Source: Candidatus Iainarchaeum sp. (GTDB lineage Archaea; Iainarchaeota; Iainarchaeia; Iainarchaeales; JAFCCJ01). From it: a stretch of DNA of 10,883 nucleotides. The DNA lies in the NCBI GenBank assembly GCA_043816965.1, contig JBDRHK010000007.1, positions 1 through 10,883 on the forward strand. Direction: 5' to 3'. The translations under genes and the position numbers were made by a program. The notes below the pieces were generated by a model. It searched no databases. It had not been told where the DNA came from and was given only the letters and a program-made list of their open reading frames with translations. Positions 343-10,883 of the stretch are shown here, piece by piece (position 1 is the first letter of the stretch; every line of letters begins with the position of its first letter).

Positions 343-3300
343 ATGAACTATGGGAAGTATATGAAGCACCAAAAAATTTTTTTAGTTTTGCTATTGTTTA
401 TGGCCTTGCTTGTGCTCAGCGGCTGCTATAATAATGTCCCTGTTTGCGGAAATGATATATGTGAGATAGGCGAGAATGCGGAAATCTGCCCAGTTGATTG
501 TGATTTTGAAGAAGACCCTCCCGGCAAAGAATGCTTGGTAGCAATGGACTGCGATGACAATGACAGATTCACAGATGACACATGTGAGGGCATGCCAAAA
601 ACCTGCAGAAACAGGCTAATGGCTTGTGGAGAGCTTGATGGAGTTATATGTGGATATGACTCAATTTGTGACAAGGATCTTGTGAATTCTGCTGACAGTG
701 GTAGATGTTGCCCCGGGAATTGCACATATGCGGATAAATGCTCAGCGGATTCTGATTGTGATGATAGCATAGTTTCCACTGAAGATATTTGCATAGGGGA
801 ACCAAAACAATGCATTAACCTTAACATAGAGGACTGCAGAACAGGGGATTCATACTGCCCGCCCAGCTGCAGCTATGGGAATGACAGTGACTGCCCAACA
901 GAGGACCAGTGCAATTATGATTCTGAATGCAATGATTATGATAATTCTACCAGAGATGCCTGTGTTGGAAACCCGAAAAGATGTATAAACACACTTAAAA
1001 CATGCGCCGAAAGGGAGGGTGATATCTGCACTGTTGATGAAAAATGCCTAGAATATTTTATGAGTTCTTTTGACAGCCAAAGGTGCTGTGCAGGCACATG
1101 CATCCTCGAATGCCTTAATGACAGTGAGTGCAATGACCAAAACCCCTCAACAAGAGACAGTTGTGAGGGCAACCCAAAAAGATGCTTCAACGAGACTATA
1201 ACTGAATGCAACAGCAATGATGATTTTTGCCCAAGCGGGTGCAGCTCCGAAAATGACAATGACTGCCCTGAGGGCTGTGATGGTGATGAATGCAATTATT
1301 GCCATAATTACTGCCAGGGAATTCTGGGAGATATTGATGGGGACGGGGTTATAACTGAGGAAGATTACCAACTCGCAATCGACATGTCTCTGGAAATAAT
1401 CGACCCCAATCCATGCGCAGACATTTCCCAGGACTGTGAAATAAATGTCATAGATGTACAGCAGATTGCAAACCTTGTCATAACCCAATCATATTGCTCT
1501 GATTTCAACACCATGTTCCTCGATTCCTGGCAAAAAAGCTGCGGGGATGCATCTTTCGATCCCAGGGCAGATGTTTCAAGCCCAGATGGAACTTCTGATG
1601 GAACTGTCGATGTTTGGGACTTTATGGTTTTCACAGACAATCACAACAATGAGCAATGGTGCGAACAGGCTTTGAATTCAACTAACAACATCTGTGGTCT
1701 CTGCCACACAAACTGCACAGGAAGGTTGGGGGATGTAACTGGCGATGGAATTATCACCCAGCAGGATGTTGACTGGATACAGGAGATGGCTGTTGATTTG
1801 AGGGAAAGGCAGGCATGTGCTGATTTAACAATGGACTGCGAGGTAAACACTGGAGACGCAATCCTGGCACTGCAGGCAATCCAGCGTTATGATTCAGCAA
1901 GTTGCACCAATACATCAATGAAGGGCGATTTAAACGAGGACGGACAAGTTACTGAAAGGGATGCCGCCACAATTCTGGCCATTGCTGTTGGCCTGGTTGC
2001 GGCGCCCTCAAACATCTGCTGTGCAGACATTAACGATGATGGCATGATTAATGCAGGCGATGGAATCCTTGCCCTACAGACAGTTGCTGGGACTAGGGCA
2101 ATTGAGTACTGTGCCACTTCCTCTTTTGAAGGAACTTACAAAGAAGGCGAAATCATTGCACATCTTGATGGTAAGTGCAATTATAATTTGGAGAAATTAA
2201 GTGTTAAACTTGATGCAATATCCCAATCAGGCCCGAATCAACCCTACAATGCTACCCTTTCCCTATATTCTTCCAATGGAACCAAAATCGACACCCAAAC
2301 TATCTCGGCAGGAGCAGACCTAAGCGAAATATTTGTAGACAATTATGGTGATTATCCACTCTTTTCAAGGGTAAGAGTAAGCACTATTACTGTCGGAGCA
2401 ACAACAGGAATCGGCGCTATAGAAGTTTTGGACTATGGAGATAATACAACTACGTGTAGCGCACCACCTCAACCAGATACCCAAACTTACAACGAAGGAG
2501 AAAGCATCACAAATCTTGATGGCATGTGCAACTATAATGGAGAATCACTCAAGGTGGTTGTTGAAGGAATACTGGATACAGGCAGCGGAGTCTACTCCGC
2601 AAGGTTTGCACTCTACCAGTCAGATGGAACCAAAATCGACACCCAAACTGTTTCCACTGGCACAGACCTAAGTCAGGTATTTATCGACAGCAGCGGTAAT
2701 TATACGCTCAAATCTAGAATCACAGTAGACACTATTGCAGTCAATGCAACAACCGTAACCGGCTATGTTGAAGTAACAGACAACGGCGACAGCACAGCCT
2801 CATGTGACGCTTCCCCACAACCGCAAATCCAAGTTTATTACGAAGGCGAAACCATTGCACAGCTTGATGGAATCTGTACTTATGAGGGGCAGAAGGTAAG
2901 CCTTAAACTTGATGGGATAACATCCTCAGGCCCAAACAACCCATATAGTGCAACCCTATCTTTGTACTCTGATACTGGGATTAAAATTGACACAAGATCA
3001 GTTGGCTCAGGAACTGACCTAAGTTTGGAATTTTATGATAATATTGGCGATCCGGCATTGAAATCAATAATTGTGGTTCAGTCAATAGGGGTTGGAGCAA
3101 CAACTGCTTTAGGATTTATTGAAGTAACCGATGAAGGGGACAGCCAATTAGGATGTTCAATTCCCTTGAATGACACAACAATTAAAATTGGAAGGGATGT
3201 TGAGGGTCTTGATTATATTGCAGAAGCAGGAGGCATTTCCTTCAGGGGGGCAGATGACACCCAGCACAACATACCTTTTTACCTCAAACCGACAAACAAT

Positions 3301-4281
3301 GGCTTTACCGGAGGAGCATTCCTTTTTGATGGCAGAACAATCTGGTATAAAATTGATGACGGAAGCTCATACATGAGCGACCTTAATATTACTCTACGGC
3401 CTGGCGATTATCTCAACGAAAACCTGATTTTGTATATCACATACACTGCCCCCAGCAATACAACAGTAACCAGTGGAATTGGCAGCCACAACATAGGCGC
3501 CAATAACACCATCACTATTGATGGAATCTCGTACATAGTTACTGGCGGAATATCGAATGGAAATAATGGCACAGTTTATTTGACGGCGGAGGGATATCTT
3601 GAATTAAGAATGTCCAACAGCACTGGAACTGTAATTTACAATCGGCAGGGAGATACATCTGATGAGTCATACGGAAAATTATACTTCAACCAGAATGAAG
3701 TTGTGGATTTAAGTTCAAACAGGAATATAGGCCTCAGGGGAAATGGCGATAGGAGATTCTATTATGCTTTCAAGTATGCGGGTGATTACAATGCAGCAGC
3801 TCAAGTTTACCTAATGCTGGATGCCGATAAAATGGGTGCAGATGAATCCAATCTTATCCAATATGGCAAAACTTTGGAATTCATGGGAACTGCAGTACCA
3901 AAACATGGAAACATCGGGGGCGAAAGCGAATACATTACACATACTAGCTTCATTCCAAAGGATTGGGATTTCAACACATCAAATATTTACACCGACCCTG
4001 CAGCATATTTCGTTGCGCAAGTAAAGGTTTCTGACCCTCAGGCTAACGGCGATATTACTGCATACATCAACACAGATGATGGAACTCTGCTTGGGCCATT
4101 CCCTAATTCAAATCTGTCTTACTACTATGGGGACCTTATATTCGATGGTGACCCATATTTCAGATTGCTAAGTGGTTCATTCAGTGGGTTCGCACAGGAA
4201 GCTGACACCTATTGGGGCGCTCACCTGAGGATTTACCCTGAAGAAAATGCAGCAATGGCTGAAATAATACTGCCTGAATGA
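343..4281 (+). CDS. Large modular cell-surface lipoprotein (Cys-rich repeats, dockerin-like Ca-binding modules, S-layer-like repeats); true start may be ATG 361
   Basis: 1312-aa ORF with signal peptide and lipobox (MKHQKIFLVLLLFMALLVLSG-C). It contains a CGNxICExGExxxxCPxDC motif, CxxDxD/ECD/NDxxxxTxDxC repeats, GDxxGDGxI/V...ADxxxDxxIN pairs, three ~116-aa repeats and an acidic Gly/Thr/Asn/Ser-rich C-terminus. Confidence 0.9.
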   Translation: MNYGKYMKHQKIFLVLLLFMALLVLSGCYNNVPVCGNDICEIGENAEICPVDCDFEEDPPGKECLVAMDCDDNDRFTDDTCEGMPKTCRNRLMACGELDGVICGYDSICDKDLVNSADSGRCCPGNCTYADKCSADSDCDDSIVSTEDICIGEPKQCINLNIEDCRTGDSYCPPSCSYGNDSDCPTEDQCNYDSECNDYDNSTRDACVGNPKRCINTLKTCAEREGDICTVDEKCLEYFMSSFDSQRCCAGTCILECLNDSECNDQNPSTRDSCEGNPKRCFNETITECNSNDDFCPSGCSSENDNDCPEGCDGDECNYCHNYCQGILGDIDGDGVITEEDYQLAIDMSLEIIDPNPCADISQDCEINVIDVQQIANLVITQSYCSDFNTMFLDSWQKSCGDASFDPRADVSSPDGTSDGTVDVWDFMVFTDNHNNEQWCEQALNSTNNICGLCHTNCTGRLGDVTGDGIITQQDVDWIQEMAVDLRERQACADLTMDCEVNTGDAILALQAIQRYDSASCTNTSMKGDLNEDGQVTERDAATILAIAVGLVAAPSNICCADINDDGMINAGDGILALQTVAGTRAIEYCATSSFEGTYKEGEIIAHLDGKCNYNLEKLSVKLDAISQSGPNQPYNATLSLYSSNGTKIDTQTISAGADLSEIFVDNYGDYPLFSRVRVSTITVGATTGIGAIEVLDYGDNTTTCSAPPQPDTQTYNEGESITNLDGMCNYNGESLKVVVEGILDTGSGVYSARFALYQSDGTKIDTQTVSTGTDLSQVFIDSSGNYTLKSRITVDTIAVNATTVTGYVEVTDNGDSTASCDASPQPQIQVYYEGETIAQLDGICTYEGQKVSLKLDGITSSGPNNPYSATLSLYSDTGIKIDTRSVGSGTDLSLEFYDNIGDPALKSIIVVQSIGVGATTALGFIEVTDEGDSQLGCSIPLNDTTIKIGRDVEGLDYIAEAGGISFRGADDTQHNIPFYLKPTNNGFTGGAFLFDGRTIWYKIDDGSSYMSDLNITLRPGDYLNENLILYITYTAPSNTTVTSGIGSHNIGANNTITIDGISYIVTGGISNGNNGTVYLTAEGYLELRMSNSTGTVIYNRQGDTSDESYGKLYFNQNEVVDLSSNRNIGLRGNGDRRFYYAFKYAGDYNAAAQVYLMLDADKMGADESNLIQYGKTLEFMGTAVPKHGNIGGESEYITHTSFIPKDWDFNTSNIYTDPAAYFVAQVKVSDPQANGDITAYINTDDGTLLGPFPNSNLSYYYGDLIFDGDPYFRLLSGSFSGFAQEADTYWGAHLRIYPEENAAMAEIILPE
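532..1269 (+). repeat. Intragenic Cys-rich tandem duplication (two units of about 120-126 aa, each with two CxxDxxCxDxxxxTxDxCxGxPKxC modules)
   Basis: Units start at 532 (CLVAMDCDDNDRFTDDTCEGMPKTC) and 910 (CNYDSECNDYDNSTRDACVGNPKRC), 378 nt apart. Both contain RCCxGxC and end in CPxxCSxxNDxDCP. Confidence 0.85.
1327..2085 (+). other. Dockerin type I-like domain cluster (three complete pairs plus one half-module)
   Basis: GDIDGDGVITEEDY..ADISQDCEINVID; GDVTGDGIITQQDV..ADLTMDCEVNTGD; GDLNEDGQVTERDA..ADINDDGMINAGD; single module ADVSSPDGTSDGTVDVWDF. Confidence 0.75.
2134..3159 (+). repeat. Three tandem ~116-aa intragenic repeats (S-layer-like beta domain)
   Basis: Each unit reads YxEGExIxxLDGxCxY...LYxxxGxKIDTxxI/VxxGxDLSxxFxDxxGxxxL...IxVxATTxxGxI/VEVxDxGD...C. 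Units start near 2134, 2485 and 2833, and a 26-nt identical block occurs at 2276-2301 and 2624-2649. Confidence 0.9.
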
Positions 4282-4357: not shown

Positions 4358-6136
4358 ATGGAGAGAACCCACAATTGCGGCGAATTGACCGGCAAAAACA
4401 CGGGAAAAGAGGCCATTCTCAATGGCTGGGTCTCAAACAGGAGAGACCATGGCGGGCTGATTTTCATTGATTTAAGGGACAGGTATGGGATTACCCAAAT
4501 CACATTTAACCCTGAAGTTTCAAAAGAATTGCATGAAAAGGCAGAGAAATTGCGTTCTGAGTTTGTTGTTGCAGTTAAGGGGAAAGTTAGCAAAAGGCCT
4601 AAAGGAACTGAAAACAAGAAAATTCCTACAGGGGAAATAGAGATCGTCGCAAAGGAACTGGAAATCATCTCCGAGGCAGAAACCCCTCCATTGGAGGTTG
4701 ATGAGCACATTAACGCAAATGAGGATTCAAGGCTGAAATGGAGATATTTGGACCTGCGAAGGCCATCAATGCAGAAGAATATTATTCTCCGCCACAAAAT
4801 GGTGAAGGCGGTAAGGGACTATTATGATTCAAGGGGATTTTTGGAAATTGAAACACCAATTCTTGCAAAATCAACGCCTGAGGGGGCAAGGGATTATCTC
4901 GTGCCTTCCAGAGTAAACCCAGGCAAATTCTTCGCCCTTCCCCAATCACCGCAGATTTTCAAGCAATTACTCATGGTCAGTGGTTTTGACAGATATATGC
5001 AGATTGTGAAATGCTTTCGCGATGAGGACCTAAGGGCGGATCGGCAGCCGGAATTCACACAGATAGATGTTGAGATGAGTTTTGTTGATGAAGAGGACAT
5101 TTACAAGGAACATGAGGGTCTAATGAAATATGTTTTTGAAAAGGTCTTCAAAATAAAACTTAAAACCCCTTTCCCGAGAATGAGCTGGCAAGAGGCGATG
5201 GACAAATATGGGATAGATAAACCTGACACAAGGTTTGGGATGGAAATTTTTAATTTGGATGATGAGGCAAAGGAAAGCGATTTCAATGTTTTCAAGGATG
5301 TTGTTGCAAAAGGGGGAAAAGTGAGAGGGATTTCAGTTCCCGAGGGAGGGGAATTCTCAAAAAAGGAACTGGAAGAATTAACCGAATTTGTAAAAGTGTA
5401 TAAGGCAAAAGGTTTAGCATGGATGAAGGTTGCAAAAGACGGAAAAGCGGAGGGAGGAATCTCAAAATTCTTTTCCGAGAAATTAATTAAAGATATTCTG
5501 AAAAAAATGGGTGCAAAGGAAAATGATTTATTGTTGTTTGTTGCCGATGACTGGAAAATTGTCTGCGACGCGCTTGGAAACCTCCGAAACCACCTCGCAA
5601 AAAAACTGAACCTTATTGACCAGAAAAAATACAATTTCCTCTGGGTTGTTGATTTTCCTATGTTTGAGTGGGATGAAGAGGACCAAAGGCCTAAGGCAAT
5701 GCACCATCCCTTCACTTCCCCGAGAAAGGAGGATTTGGAACTGCTGGAAAGTGAGCCCCTGAAAGTGAGAAGCAATGCGTATGATCTCACTTTGAACGGT
5801 GTTGAGCTGGGAGGGGGAAGCATCAGAATCCACAAAAAGGATTTGCAGAAGCGGGTATTCAAGGCAATGGGAATTTCTGATGAGGAGGCGGAAAACAAAT
5901 TCGGTTTTATGATGAATGCATTCCGGTATGGGGCCCCACCACACGGGGGAATCGCGTTCGGAATGGACAGGTTTGTTATGATAATGGCTGGCGCAGAGTC
6001 GATAAGGGATGTAATCGCATTCCCAAAGAACAAGGCCGCAGTTTCATTGATGGATGAATCCCCTAGTGAAGTGAATGAGAAACAATTGAAAGAGCTGCGC
6101 ATAAAACTGGATATTGAAAAGCCAGCCAAAGAATAG
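4358..6136 (+). CDS. aspS: Aspartate--tRNA ligase, bacterial-type, probably non-discriminating (Asp/Asn)
   Basis: 592 aa with OB-fold RRDHGGLIFIDLRD, motif 1 region STPEGARDYLVPSR, LPQSPQ, motif 2 FRDEDLRADRQPEFTQID, GAD insertion, HHPFT, ELGGGSIRIH and motif 3 GAPPHGGIAFGMDR. Confidence 0.98.
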   Translation: MERTHNCGELTGKNTGKEAILNGWVSNRRDHGGLIFIDLRDRYGITQITFNPEVSKELHEKAEKLRSEFVVAVKGKVSKRPKGTENKKIPTGEIEIVAKELEIISEAETPPLEVDEHINANEDSRLKWRYLDLRRPSMQKNIILRHKMVKAVRDYYDSRGFLEIETPILAKSTPEGARDYLVPSRVNPGKFFALPQSPQIFKQLLMVSGFDRYMQIVKCFRDEDLRADRQPEFTQIDVEMSFVDEEDIYKEHEGLMKYVFEKVFKIKLKTPFPRMSWQEAMDKYGIDKPDTRFGMEIFNLDDEAKESDFNVFKDVVAKGGKVRGISVPEGGEFSKKELEELTEFVKVYKAKGLAWMKVAKDGKAEGGISKFFSEKLIKDILKKMGAKENDLLLFVADDWKIVCDALGNLRNHLAKKLNLIDQKKYNFLWVVDFPMFEWDEEDQRPKAMHHPFTSPRKEDLELLESEPLKVRSNAYDLTLNGVELGGGSIRIHKKDLQKRVFKAMGISDEEAENKFGFMMNAFRYGAPPHGGIAFGMDRFVMIMAGAESIRDVIAFPKNKAAVSLMDESPSEVNEKQLKELRIKLDIEKPAKE

Positions 6137-9153: not shown

Positions 9154-9759
9154 ATGGGCCTTAGTGGTTGGATAGTTTGTCTAATTTCAAACTTTTTGAG
9201 TTGGTTAGTTAACATAGCAATAAATTTCTTCAATATACTAAAGAACCCTAAAGAAATGGCTAATTTGATAATACAATTTATTTTATTGGGCATAATCCTG
9301 TCAATAATTACCAGCACAGTAATTATTCCTGCGTTAACTCCAAAAACTAATATTGATGTTTACATAGATAAACAAAAAGACGAGTTTATTTCAGTAACTT
9401 TTTACAACAATGCTGATTTTGCAGGGGATGATTTTAAAATAGAATTTGATGGCTTAAATTACACATATTATTCATATGACGCATTTTCGCCAGCCACTCT
9501 TTGTAAAACAGATATGTTGAAAGCTAGTAAGACTCAGGAGTTCCTTATTGGTTTCCAAGTTCAATGTAACTACATTCCTCCAAAATCAAAAATAGTTCTT
9601 AAGTTCATACCACAAAAAATAATGTGGAACGTAGAAGAGCATCCAGATCGTGAAAACTTTTTCCATATAAATTATTGGAGTAAAACAACCCCTCAAACTA
9701 AACTGATTTGCAATAATGTGACTTTTGAATGTACTCAGAATCAATTTGATGCGAATTAG
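9154..9759 (+). CDS. Hypothetical membrane-anchored protein (start ATG 9154 or TTG 9142)
   Basis: Hydrophobic segments (WIVCLISNFLSWLVNIAINFF; LIIQFILLGIILSIITSTVIIPAL) precede a beta-like Cys-containing domain. GGTGA lies before ATG 9154. AT-rich (17/60 G+C counted at 9241-9300). Confidence 0.7.
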   Translation: MGLSGWIVCLISNFLSWLVNIAINFFNILKNPKEMANLIIQFILLGIILSIITSTVIIPALTPKTNIDVYIDKQKDEFISVTFYNNADFAGDDFKIEFDGLNYTYYSYDAFSPATLCKTDMLKASKTQEFLIGFQVQCNYIPPKSKIVLKFIPQKIMWNVEEHPDRENFFHINYWSKTTPQTKLICNNVTFECTQNQFDAN

Positions 9760-9770
9760 ATTTTCCCCCC

Positions 9771-9920
9771 ACCACCTCCAATCTTCGAATTTTTTCCTAC
9801 GACTGGGTGTTTCTCGGCTTAAATCTTTGCACGCCTAAATTCAGCCTACTGGTACAAAGAATTTAATGCCTCCAAACACCCTAACCGTCTTCAGAAAAAA
9901 TTCACTTTTTTGGAGGTGGT
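9771..9920. repeat. ~150-nt imperfect palindrome / rod-like hairpin (candidate structured RNA or ssDNA element)
   Basis: Nested complementary blocks: 9771-9781/9910-9920 (11 bp), 9787-9796/9894-9903 (10 bp), ACG/CGT, 9805-9812/9874-9881 (8 bp), GGC/GCC, TTAAAT/ATTTAA, CTTTG/CAAAG and AC/GT, giving 48 Watson-Crick pairs by hand. Confidence 0.9.
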
Positions 9921-9927
9921 TCGGTTG

Positions 9928-10062
9928 ATGAAAAATCAACTCAATATTCAACTTCCCACAAGGGAAGAGATTAGAATGGCTGAGGAATTGGCCCAAACAG
10001 ATCCAGAGAACTTAACAGATAGGGAACTCTGGATTCTGAGAGACATCGGAGGGGATTTCTGA
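9928..10062 (+). CDS. Small acidic protein or leader peptide, 44 aa (below the ORF-track cutoff)
   Basis: Strong SD GGAGGTG at 9912-9918; MKNQLNIQLPTREEIRMAEELAQTDPENLTDRELWILRDIGGDF*. Confidence 0.6.
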   Translation: MKNQLNIQLPTREEIRMAEELAQTDPENLTDRELWILRDIGGDF

Positions 10063-10082
10063 TGTTTCTCTTTTTCTTTTTT
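10038..10082 (+). terminator. Terminator-like hairpin plus T tract, overlapping the junction of the two small ORFs
   Basis: GAGAGACATCGGAG (10038-10051) pairs with TTCTGATGTTTCTC (10057-10070): 14 bp with three G-U pairs on the + strand. It is followed by TTTTTCTTTTTT. Confidence 0.5.
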
Positions 10083-10214
10083 GTCATCAATTACTTCTGC
10101 TTTGTTTCCGTGCTTCTTCTATTCACTTATGGATTCAAAGAACAATCCTACAAATTAGCGAAGTATCTGCTTGCGTTCTTTCTTGGAATGCTCGCTATGG
10201 AGTTGATTCTGTGA
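10062..10214 (+). CDS. Small hydrophobic peptide, 50 aa, two predicted membrane helices
   Basis: TGATG overlap with the 44-aa ORF and GGAGGGG at 10048-10054; MFLFFFFVINYFCFVSVLLLFTYGFKEQSYKLAKYLLAFFLGMLAMELIL*. Confidence 0.5.
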   Translation: MFLFFFFVINYFCFVSVLLLFTYGFKEQSYKLAKYLLAFFLGMLAMELIL

Positions 10215-10273
10215 GTTCTGGCACCGGAAGCCTACCCCCGAAACGAAATAAAAACGCGGAAAACTCATTTATT

Positions 10274-10485
10274 ATGAATAATATGGATTTGGATTATTTG
10301 CAAGACAAGATTAAAAAGAACCCAGTAAGCCCCATTGACTTTCATTCCTTTTCATTTCTAATGAAAGACTTGAACTTAATTGAGGGCAAAGAAGCAATCA
10401 CTTTCCTATACTCCTTATACTGTTTATTTACAAAGAAGAAGATTGAAGGAATCAATAAGGGTTTTGTTTACCATTTCGCAAAAGA
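10274..10485 (+). pseudogene. Hypothetical gene interrupted by the IS66 element
   Basis: The frame from ATG 10274/10283 (MNNMDLDYLQDKIKK...GFVYHFAKE) has no stop before the IS terminus at 10486. The last residues of track ORF 10211-10528 are read-through into the IS. Confidence 0.55.
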
Positions 10486-10497
10486 GTATCTGCTAAC
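10486..10497 (+). repeat. IS terminal inverted repeat (IRR), GTATCTGCTAAC
   Basis: Exact inverted match to 294-305; contains the transposase TAG stop. Confidence 0.9.
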
Positions 10498-10883
10498 AAC
10501 TTATGGCTGTTTTGAGGGTCTGGAATAGGGGTTTTTCTTGTTGTTTCCAGGTGGCAAGCATCGTGTTCACGATGCCCATTGTGTCCGCCCCGTGCTCCGC
10601 CCGCAGCCCGCCTATTATTTTGCGCTGAACTATCAGCTCGCGGAGTGCGCGTTCCGCCCTGTTGTTTGTTGGCTCAACAAATAAGTGTTCAATGCAGGTA
10701 AACCATGCATTCAAGCCGTTGCCTAGTTTGATTGCAAGCCCTCTGAACAGATTGTGCGATTCAAGCACATCAATGAGTTCCTGCATACGCTGTTCAAGGC
10801 CTTGTTTGAGTTGCAGCCGCTTTTTTAATGGCGGCGGTTTTTGCTGAATGCGTTTTATCTGCGAGAACATGCGCTTGAGTTTT
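10493..10883 (-). CDS. IS66-family transposase, C-terminal fragment (partial, open beyond the window end)
   Basis: VEPTNNRAERALRELIVQRKIIGGLR...TMLATWKQQ is the IS66 DDE C-terminal PxNNxAERxLR motif. The frame stays open upstream of Met 10870 (KLKR). Confidence 0.93.
   Translation of the reverse strand, partial: KLKRMFSQIKRIQQKPPPLKKRLQLKQGLEQRMQELIDVLESHNLFRGLAIKLGNGLNAWFTCIEHLFVEPTNNRAERALRELIVQRKIIGGLRAEHGADTMGIVNTMLATWKQQEKPLFQTLKTAISC

Follow-up and report, generated by a model that had tools for sequence, protein, structure and literature searches.

The hairpin at positions 9771–9920 of contig JBDRHK010000007.1 (assembly GCA_043816965.1) of the archaeon Candidatus Iainarchaeum sp. is a conserved, cis-acting module that opens a selfish, free-standing cassette with a LAGLIDADG homing-endonuclease gene, as the comparison of its copies shows. 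The order of the cassette is hairpin, open reading frame (ORF) of about 44 codons and LAGLIDADG homing-endonuclease gene, and the hairpin, a rod of 150 nt on the plus strand, forms its left end. The window analyzed here is this entire contig of 10,883 bp, which belongs to a genome of 1.34 Mb in 109 contigs; in the following, G000 is the genome under study, C with a number one of its contigs, and L with a number a locus. For the function of the hairpin, the reading that we put first, with a probability of roughly 45%, is that of a self-contained insulator and translational silencer leader acting on the plus strand, by analogy with the hairpins of T4 endonuclease genes. A first-pass annotation of the window had described the structure well, while the multi-copy status of the hairpin and its place in a homing-endonuclease cassette had not been recognized.

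Folded as RNA, the plus strand of 9771–9920 reaches −54.2 kcal/mol (z −9.71) and the minus strand −65.0 kcal/mol (z −8.73), and none of 200 dinucleotide shuffles was as good on either strand. With DNA parameters, the values are −30.9 (z −8.17) for the plus strand and −35.0 (z −7.95) for the minus strand. The minimum free energy (MFE) structures contain 49 pairs on the plus strand and 55 on the minus strand, with the brackets counted by eye. The hairpin is thus located where the first-pass annotation had placed it, and both strands lie far below their shuffled controls. The rod consists of five helices with conserved internal loops. The outermost one, helix 1, joins ACCACCTCCAA (9771–9781, plus strand), which resembles an anti-Shine-Dalgarno sequence, to TTGGAGGTGGT (9910–9920, plus strand), which holds the Shine-Dalgarno (SD) sequence GGAGGTG at 9912–9918. 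This SD sits ten bases 5' of the ATG at 9928, and SD-like motifs peak 9–14 nt before ATG genome-wide; the earlier statement that the outermost helix pairs the SD of a 44-aa ORF is therefore correct. Helix 2 is formed by GAATTTTTTC (9787–9796, plus strand), which contains a run of six T (T6), and its partner GAAAAAATTC at 9894–9903. Helix 3, of 4 bp, lies between a 3x2 internal loop and a 1x7 loop. A search of Rfam returned nothing over the window hairpin at E up to 1 and only tRNAs at the loci of the seven other copies at E up to 0.1, in line with the annotation, which could not match the hairpin to any known RNA family.

The genome carries eight copies of the hairpin, which share 76–82% identity and are dispersed over seven contigs. 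When the copies are aligned together with their flanks, homology begins sharply a few bases before CACCACCTCC and then runs through the hairpin and the 44-codon ORF; in three copies, including that of the window, it extends past a hydrophobic 50-codon ORF to a 22-nt motif. A covariance model was built from the eight genomic copies, and it shows that homologues are present in other DPANN genomes. In the order, 56 of the 151 genomes sampled contain a match (E up to 0.001), and these fall in 33 of 66 genera; in a phylum-wide sample, 61 of 151 genomes do so at E up to 1e-6, while 11 genomes of five families absent from the order sample gave no match. Several distinct hairpin loci occur per genome, for example five for G086 among the matches listed. 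Echoes of the model on the reverse strand score about 90–140 bits lower, and the model is therefore strand-specific in sequence. The family-wide results given below refer to 41 non-redundant loci, 8 from the genome under study and 33 from other genomes, which are the best-scoring of well over 100 plus-strand matches (about 130 or more).

Base pairing in this family is strongly selected. The tests were made on the 41-sequence alignment, which was fitted to the covariance model and so favors structure; standard pairs fill 96.4% of 2004 cells as compared with 87.4% in shuffles, double-sided changes occur at 36 of 50 pairs, and none of 500 shuffles reaches any of the observed pairing measures. If the partner strand is slid by 1–3 columns, pairing falls to 39–53% and the covariation score drops from 0.253 to about 0.05. 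The effect is large despite the model-fitted alignment, and compensatory blocks can be seen by eye, for example GGGTGTTT/AAACACCC in the window, which is replaced by CTGATTTT/AAAATCAG in other copies. The annotation had suspected selection on the structure from one copy, and the family bears this out.

The helices differ in how they vary. In helix 1, 93.7% of cells are paired and double-sided changes are found at all 11 pairs, on both sides of the SD core; its mispairs have the deviant base on the 5' arm in 23 cases and on the SD arm in 10, so that the SD-bearing arm is more constrained than the 5' arm in this helix only. Helix 2 is the least variable, with 98.8% of cells paired and 3 of its 10 pairs never varying, and double-sided changes occur at 31 of the 40 pairs of helices 1, 3, 4 and 5. 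In one relative, L014 (G026 C1:267356–267515), helix 2 (T6/A6) is gone from both arms, and the anti-SD/SD helix, helices 3–5 and the TTTAAT box described below are retained. Unpaired bases are conserved as well. A 3x3 internal loop sets CTC (9813–9815, plus strand) opposite TCC (9871–9873), and over the 41 copies, the CTC side keeps its T in 41 and its C in 39, whereas the TCC side keeps T in 41, C in 41 and C in 39. Together with one bulged T, this loop is invariant or nearly so. On the minus strand, it reads GGA/GAG and is predicted to form tandem G-A/A-G pairs next to GGC/GCC; the first-pass annotation had pointed to just these possible tandem pairs, and their sequence proves to be nearly fixed family-wide. 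The apical spacer is of variable length, with a difference of about 30 nt among the copies.

Downstream of the hairpin lie the ORFs of the cassette. The leader ORF sORF1 (MKNQ...LTDRELWILRDIGGDF; 44 codons, 9928–10062, plus strand) is conserved in the seven other copies of the genome, and its differences are distributed 54/54/94 over the three codon positions, with 75 synonymous and 79 non-synonymous codon differences. By this pattern, it behaves as a coding sequence would. The second ORF, sORF2 (50 codons, hydrophobic, 10062–10214, plus strand), has a start that overlaps the stop of sORF1 (TGATG), and it is an optional part of the cassette; tblastn finds it in the C7, C26 and C66 copies only (three of eight), and it is deleted in C5, C86, C15a and C25. 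There is no Pfam match for either small ORF and no usable Atlas match for sORF1. In the endonuclease position, the window holds the 5' fragment of a large ORF (10274–10485, plus strand, starting MNNMDLDYLQ), which is cut at about 10480 by an IS66 insertion. Complete copies have an ORF of 273–377 aa at this position, and LAGLIDADG_3 (Pfam) was found in five of six tested.

The same organization extends to the relatives. Pfam identifies the large downstream ORF as LAGLIDADG in 22 of the 41 loci, and this ORF is similar to Pfam-positive LAGLIDADG ORFs in 10 more, in the case of L003 via a shared N-terminal stretch only; the remainder are eight loci without LAGLIDADG evidence for the large ORF and the truncated window copy. 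The endonucleases of the hairpin cassettes share less than 30% identity. In 32 of the 41 loci, the start of an ORF of at least 25 aa is no more than about 25 nt away from the end of the hairpin, and the leader ORFs belong to two unrelated types, ...LTDRELWIL..GGDF and MSFS..NPFGDGFSFDELLKNMK. In many relatives, the leader ORF and the large ORF overlap at stop and start; L040, L044 and L062 have no leader ORF, and the large ORF itself begins at the hairpin end.

The cassettes are intergenic. Four of the eight genomic copies adjoin tRNA genes, one (C5) lies directly 5' of metRS, and the C15a copy lies between the halves of a split-intein lonB, where the C-terminal intein end is visible. In the same-genus genome G001, the site is empty, with about 60 nt between the left flank and metRS as compared with about 1484 nt at C5 of G000, and the cassette is therefore an insertion. 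Over the 41 loci, the nearest upstream gene is co-oriented in 18 and opposite in 18, and in 5 there is none within 400 nt. A loose T-run followed by an A-run (TTTTTnAAAA) is found 5–17 nt to the left of the hairpin in about half of the loci, and it may be a bidirectional oligo-T terminator of the cassette or a property of the insertion site. Free-standing homing-endonuclease genes that spread by intronless homing are known from T4, as the Seg and Mob genes. The present cassettes resemble these in being pressed against conserved genes (tRNA genes in four of eight, the start of metRS) and in having a close relative with an empty site; this likeness belongs to the cassette as a whole rather than to the hairpin.

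Two flanks of individual copies have features of their own. At L008 (G000 C66), a 16-nt direct repeat, GGTACCGAAGCGGTCT, at 208–224 and 1685–1701 flanks the cassette. The right repeat is the 5' part of an intron-containing tRNA gene into which the endonuclease ORF runs, and the left repeat resembles an orphan tRNA stump. At G000 C5:9790–9900 (L020, about 2970–3080), the reading frame of metRS appears to shift within the first 20 codons, around the region of the HIGH motif, which is either an assembly error or a real defect.

The 3' arm of the hairpin also contains a box that looks like an archaeal promoter. This arm reads AAAGG(A)TTTAATGCC, and the box, CAAAGAATTTAAT (9855–9867, plus strand), resembles a B recognition element (BRE) followed by a TATA element, with TTTAAT at 9862–9867. 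Of the 39 copies measured, 38 have TTTAAT, at a fixed spacing of 31–33 nt before the G of GAAAAAATTC and 48–54 nt before GGAGG. Genome-wide, TATA-like hexamers peak 30, 29 and 28 nt before ATG (43, 38 and 23 of 980 upstream regions; the background is mostly below 13), which points to many leaderless mRNAs and to a distance of 28–30 nt from TATA to the start. The sequence AAAGG[N]TTTAA[AT] is also found 5' of tRNA-Ile and of leaderless ATGs elsewhere in the genome, and boxes similar to AAAGG-TTTAA precede many tRNA genes. By the spacing of the genome, the transcription start of the cassette is predicted at 9891–9894 on the plus strand, 28–30 nt 3' of the first T of TTTAAT, and it therefore coincides with the beginning of the 3' strand of helix 2. 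A transcript from this start would have a leader of roughly 35 nt with a free SD and no 5' arm. In the folded rod, the AAAGG-TTTAAT box faces GGCTTAAACCTTT in the 5' arm, and the boxes are of archaeal and not of sigma-70 type. Because of two conserved bulges of one base each, the rightward box reads TTTAAT and its mirror image on the opposite strand TTTAAG; this difference fits a functional promoter directed rightward.

On the reading that we favor, the 3' arm would supply the cassette with its own BRE/TATA promoter, its 5' untranslated region and its SD. Transcripts from this promoter would start near 9893, would lack the 5' arm and would be translatable. RNA that reads through from a neighboring host gene would carry both arms; it would either stop at the T6 run or fold into a 50-bp rod, in which the anti-SD-like 5' end would pair with the ribosome-binding site of the first ORF. 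Archaeal RNA polymerase terminates at oligo-T, and the T6 tracts on both strands are accordingly putative terminators. Since the endonuclease ORF is usually coupled to the first ORF, a masked SD would silence the whole cassette.

The model for this reading comes from phages. Leader hairpins that sequester the ribosome-binding site are a functional class and not a homologous family; two sources assign to it T4 I-TevI, I-TevII, I-TevIII and segB, Aeh1 mobE and the marine "fractured genes" (PMC2988022, PMC2677866). In the endonuclease genes of T4-type phages, a stable hairpin hides the ribosome-binding site on transcripts from upstream, and a promoter inside the hairpin gives transcripts from which the endonuclease can be translated (PMC2988022), and the "fractured gene" endonucleases are of the same design (PMC2677866). 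The archaeal hairpin shares with these a position directly 5' of a free-standing endonuclease gene or of a coupled leader ORF, a ribosome-binding site within the stem, and, if the BRE/TATA-like box is functional, a promoter inside the hairpin, so that the cassette's own transcripts are predicted to lack the 5' arm; the C15a copy between the halves of lonB even repeats the arrangement of the fractured genes. In contrast to the phage systems, the host is a cellular archaeon and the endonucleases are LAGLIDADG rather than GIY-YIG, HNH or Vsr-like. The short stem of the phage hairpins is replaced by one of about 50 bp with five helices and invariant loops, and a leader ORF usually stands between hairpin and endonuclease. 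Furthermore, this is one homologous family, found across an order and in front of unrelated endonuclease genes, its putative promoter is of the archaeal BRE/TATA type, and its regulation is a prediction from sequence.

A second shared element lies farther downstream. In the window, the 22-nt motif CACCGGAAGCCTACCCCCGAAA, followed by an A/T-rich box, is found at 10222–10243 on the plus strand. Written as CACCGGAARCCYACYCCCGAAA, the motif has 22 sites in the genome (among them C22:1072, C22:30201, C31:28878, C81:9267 on the minus strand and C103:15347 on the minus strand), as compared with none for the reversed control. At every site, a TATA-like box comes immediately after the motif, with an ATG about 25–35 nt later. 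At least 11 of the 22 sites stand before LAGLIDADG genes, and five of these are at endonuclease loci that have no hairpin. An interpretation as a plain host promoter motif was rejected for this association. The motif is a second shared 5' element of endonuclease genes, and several of these ORFs therefore have a promoter-like element of their own downstream of the hairpin-leader.

Directly before seven of the 22-nt motif sites, a GC-rich repeat of about 60–100 nt (...GTCGTGTCAACTG.GATAGCAGTT...) was observed, at G000 C5:7822–8000, C21:~4680, C22:~18820 and ~19700, C50:~9170, C38:~30600 and C57:~1870. The same repeat, a possible structured leader or small mobile repeat, stands directly 5' of tRNA-Ser(cga) on C19, tRNA-Ser(tga) on C70 and tRNA-Cys on C90.

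The question of which strand folds was approached through the composition of the pairs and the folding energies. The first-pass annotation had held that the hairpin folds better on the minus strand, where C-A oppositions of the plus strand become G-U pairs. In the window copy, this exchange is real and is the cause of the lower raw energy of the minus strand; measured against shuffles, however, the plus strand of this copy is slightly more unusual. Family-wide, the asymmetry does not hold, for the 2004 paired cells comprise 1898 Watson-Crick pairs, 34 G:T (wobble on the plus strand) and 30 A:C (wobble on the minus strand), and the counts, low and nearly equal, indicate that neither strand is favored and that either mispair is little tolerated. 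In 34 of the 41 copies, the raw MFE is lower on the minus strand (means −59.7 for the minus and −55.9 for the plus strand), but the mean z-scores are −7.6 for the plus and −7.5 for the minus strand, with the plus strand more extreme in 22 of 41. The difference in raw energy thus reflects composition.

Several observations weigh against an insulator and silencer leader of the plus strand. No conserved promoter is found 5' of the hairpin in the 41 loci, merely the loose T-run and A-run; a complete plus-strand hairpin RNA therefore depends on read-through, the upstream neighbor is co-oriented in just 18 of 41 loci, and much of the read-through should already end at the T6 run of the 5' arm. G:U is not favored over A:C, which is unusual for a selected RNA helix, and the two arms are equally conserved overall (entropy 0.490 and 0.479). 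The invariant unpaired bases of the loops are left unexplained by plain SD masking, and the hairpin is far longer than such masking requires. Moreover, several endonuclease ORFs of the genome have their second promoter-like element, and about half of the free-standing-size LAGLIDADG loci of the genome are without a hairpin. The start site and the full-length hairpin RNA are themselves predictions.

Some of these points suit another reading, an archaeal analogue of the single-strand DNA (ssDNA) promoters of conjugative plasmids, Frpo/ssi, which were reportedly described by Masai and Arai in 1997. Here, the minus strand would become single-stranded after DNA uptake, resection, or strand displacement in homing or recombinational copying, and by folding it would rebuild a duplex BRE/TATA box. 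The host polymerase would then transcribe leader ORF and endonuclease before the complementary strand exists. We know of no ssDNA promoter in archaea. Long imperfect hairpins with promoter boxes facing their complements in the stem, directly 5' of mobile-element genes that benefit from early expression, are common to Frpo (PMC11541004) and to the present element. Frpo uses bacterial −35/−10 elements on the transferred plasmid strand (PMC11541004), whereas the boxes here are archaeal and chromosomal, and the stem here, unlike that of Frpo, also covers the ribosome-binding site. By the geometry of the cassette, only the minus strand could be the template for the plus-sense genes. The stretch about 10 to 1 nt 5' of the predicted start, which in a promoter would be expected to melt, contains a conserved bulge of 6–7 nt, CA(G)AG(A/C)C, and helix 3, weak with its 4 bp; the bulge would keep this stretch open. 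The lower MFE of the minus strand in most copies, the tandem G-A/A-G of the invariant loop on that strand and the mispairs without an RNA-type wobble bias would also be understandable.

Nevertheless, we consider an ssDNA promoter improbable. A duplex promoter would work anyway, the chromosomal cassettes give no sign of traveling as single strands, and an exact-pattern scan of viral contigs for the hairpin core gave no match. Next to the TATA core, the duplex is broken by the two conserved single-base bulges, and the z-scores are equal on both strands. An outer helix that is built exactly on the SD, covaries around it and is retained when helix 2 is lost would be unexplained; in a silencer leader, this helix would mask the ribosome-binding site.

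A purely DNA-level bidirectional insulator is slightly less probable still. It would place T6 terminators on both strands to shield cassette and neighbors from mutual transcription, and the pairing of the arms would be a by-product or matter at the DNA level only. Helix 2 (GAATTTTTTC/GAAAAAATTC), which carries T6 on both strands, is indeed the most invariant one, the loose T-run and A-run to the left would add to the effect in about half of the copies, and the cassettes occur in both orientations relative to their neighbors. Terminator tracts need no pairing, yet helices 1, 3, 4 and 5 covary, and L014 keeps the rest of the hairpin without helix 2.

We give a similarly low standing to a protein recognition site, folded or as a duplex palindrome, in which the loop bases would be contacts of a regulator encoded by the leader ORF, of the endonuclease or of a host factor. 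Unpaired bases are more conserved than many paired ones, and long stretches of both arms are nearly invariant across the order in front of endonucleases that are less than 30% identical. The last fact cuts both ways, as endonucleases of such diversity are unlikely to share one common site. The leader peptide is an unlikely partner as well, because the same hairpin stands before two unrelated leader-ORF types or none, and sORF1 has no detectable family; the variation of the apical spacer by about 30 nt does not fit a dimer on duplex DNA.

An antisense RNA from the minus strand that covers the SD and the start of the leader ORF, with sORF2 as a hydrophobic peptide under control of type I toxin-antitoxin kind (hok/sok-like), is very unlikely; an antisense RNA over the SD was the first option of the first-pass annotation. 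The lower raw energy of the minus strand, the coupling of sORF2 to the leader ORF in some copies including that of the window, where it overlaps the sORF1 stop, and a short T-run that follows the minus-strand hairpin in about half of the copies could be cited for it. However, no conserved minus-strand promoter was seen to the right, where the two leader-ORF types differ, a minus-strand transcript would likewise meet T6 on entering the hairpin, tblastn finds sORF2 in three of eight copies only, and the pairs have no wobble bias toward the minus strand.

Other candidates were rejected. A miniature inverted-repeat transposable element (MITE) or palindrome-associated transposable element (PATE), which would be a short unit without genes that moves independently and has target-site duplications, does not fit, as all eight copies continue into leader ORF and large ORF, and a flanking direct repeat of at least 12 nt is found in one of eight only, which is the tRNA 5' stump. 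Integron attC sites belong to tandem arrays of cassettes and have core sites of GTTRRRY type; the base of the hairpin is CACCTCC/GGAGGTG by inspection, and the copies are dispersed over seven contigs. An archaeal bulge-helix-bulge intron would have two 3-nt bulges on opposite strands with a 4-bp helix between them, not the 3x2 and 1x7 loops that flank the 4-bp helix 3. An intron or gene split in metRS was dismissed because the start is intact just 3' of the C5 cassette and the relative G001 has an empty site, and a group I intron because Rfam gave no such match in the seven other loci.

The remainder of the window consists of ordinary chromosomal genes upstream and of a mobile element downstream. 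An ORF of 1312 aa with a dockerin type I domain (343–4281), with three tandem repeats of about 350 nt at 2133–3144, probably encodes a repetitive surface protein. It is followed by AspRS (4358–6136), which adjoins a GatA-type amidase gene and contains the GAD insertion domain that is typical of bacterial-type AspRS, here in an archaeal genome. An inositol monophosphatase and two ORFs without a family are also present; the ORF directly 5' of the hairpin has 205 aa, and its stop ends at 9759. At the other end, 10480–10883 on the minus strand is the end of an IS66-family insertion sequence (DDE_Tnp_IS66 match at 6e-07), which is not part of the cassette. This repeat begins at 10480–10486, interrupts the endonuclease ORF and terminates the contig. 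The sequence recurs with 97.9–99.3% identity at the ends of six contigs (C88, C84, C85, C44, C76 and C5), which makes this insertion sequence one of the main reasons for breaks in the assembly.

Descriptions of homing-endonuclease genes usually present them as selfish ORFs and nothing more. In this DPANN order, diverse endonuclease genes with less than 30% identity all bear one covarying module of 150 nt, several times per genome. The regulatory idea is known from phages; the archaeal element, its size, its conservation and its putative archaeal promoter have not been described before, as far as a limited literature search, which found no description of this archaeal leader, goes. The hairpin can serve as a practical marker for such cassettes and is a candidate new RNA or DNA motif family for libraries of the Rfam type. 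The loci form a large natural set that can be aligned, and in which it can be studied how selfish genes insulate themselves from the transcription of an archaeal host, how translation initiation is controlled where leaderless and SD-led mRNAs are mixed, and whether single-stranded DNA drives expression outside bacteria. If the ssDNA promoter were the true explanation, the endonuclease would be expressed from DNA that has just entered or been copied and is not yet double-stranded, and the selfish gene would cut the resident chromosome while the repair template is present.

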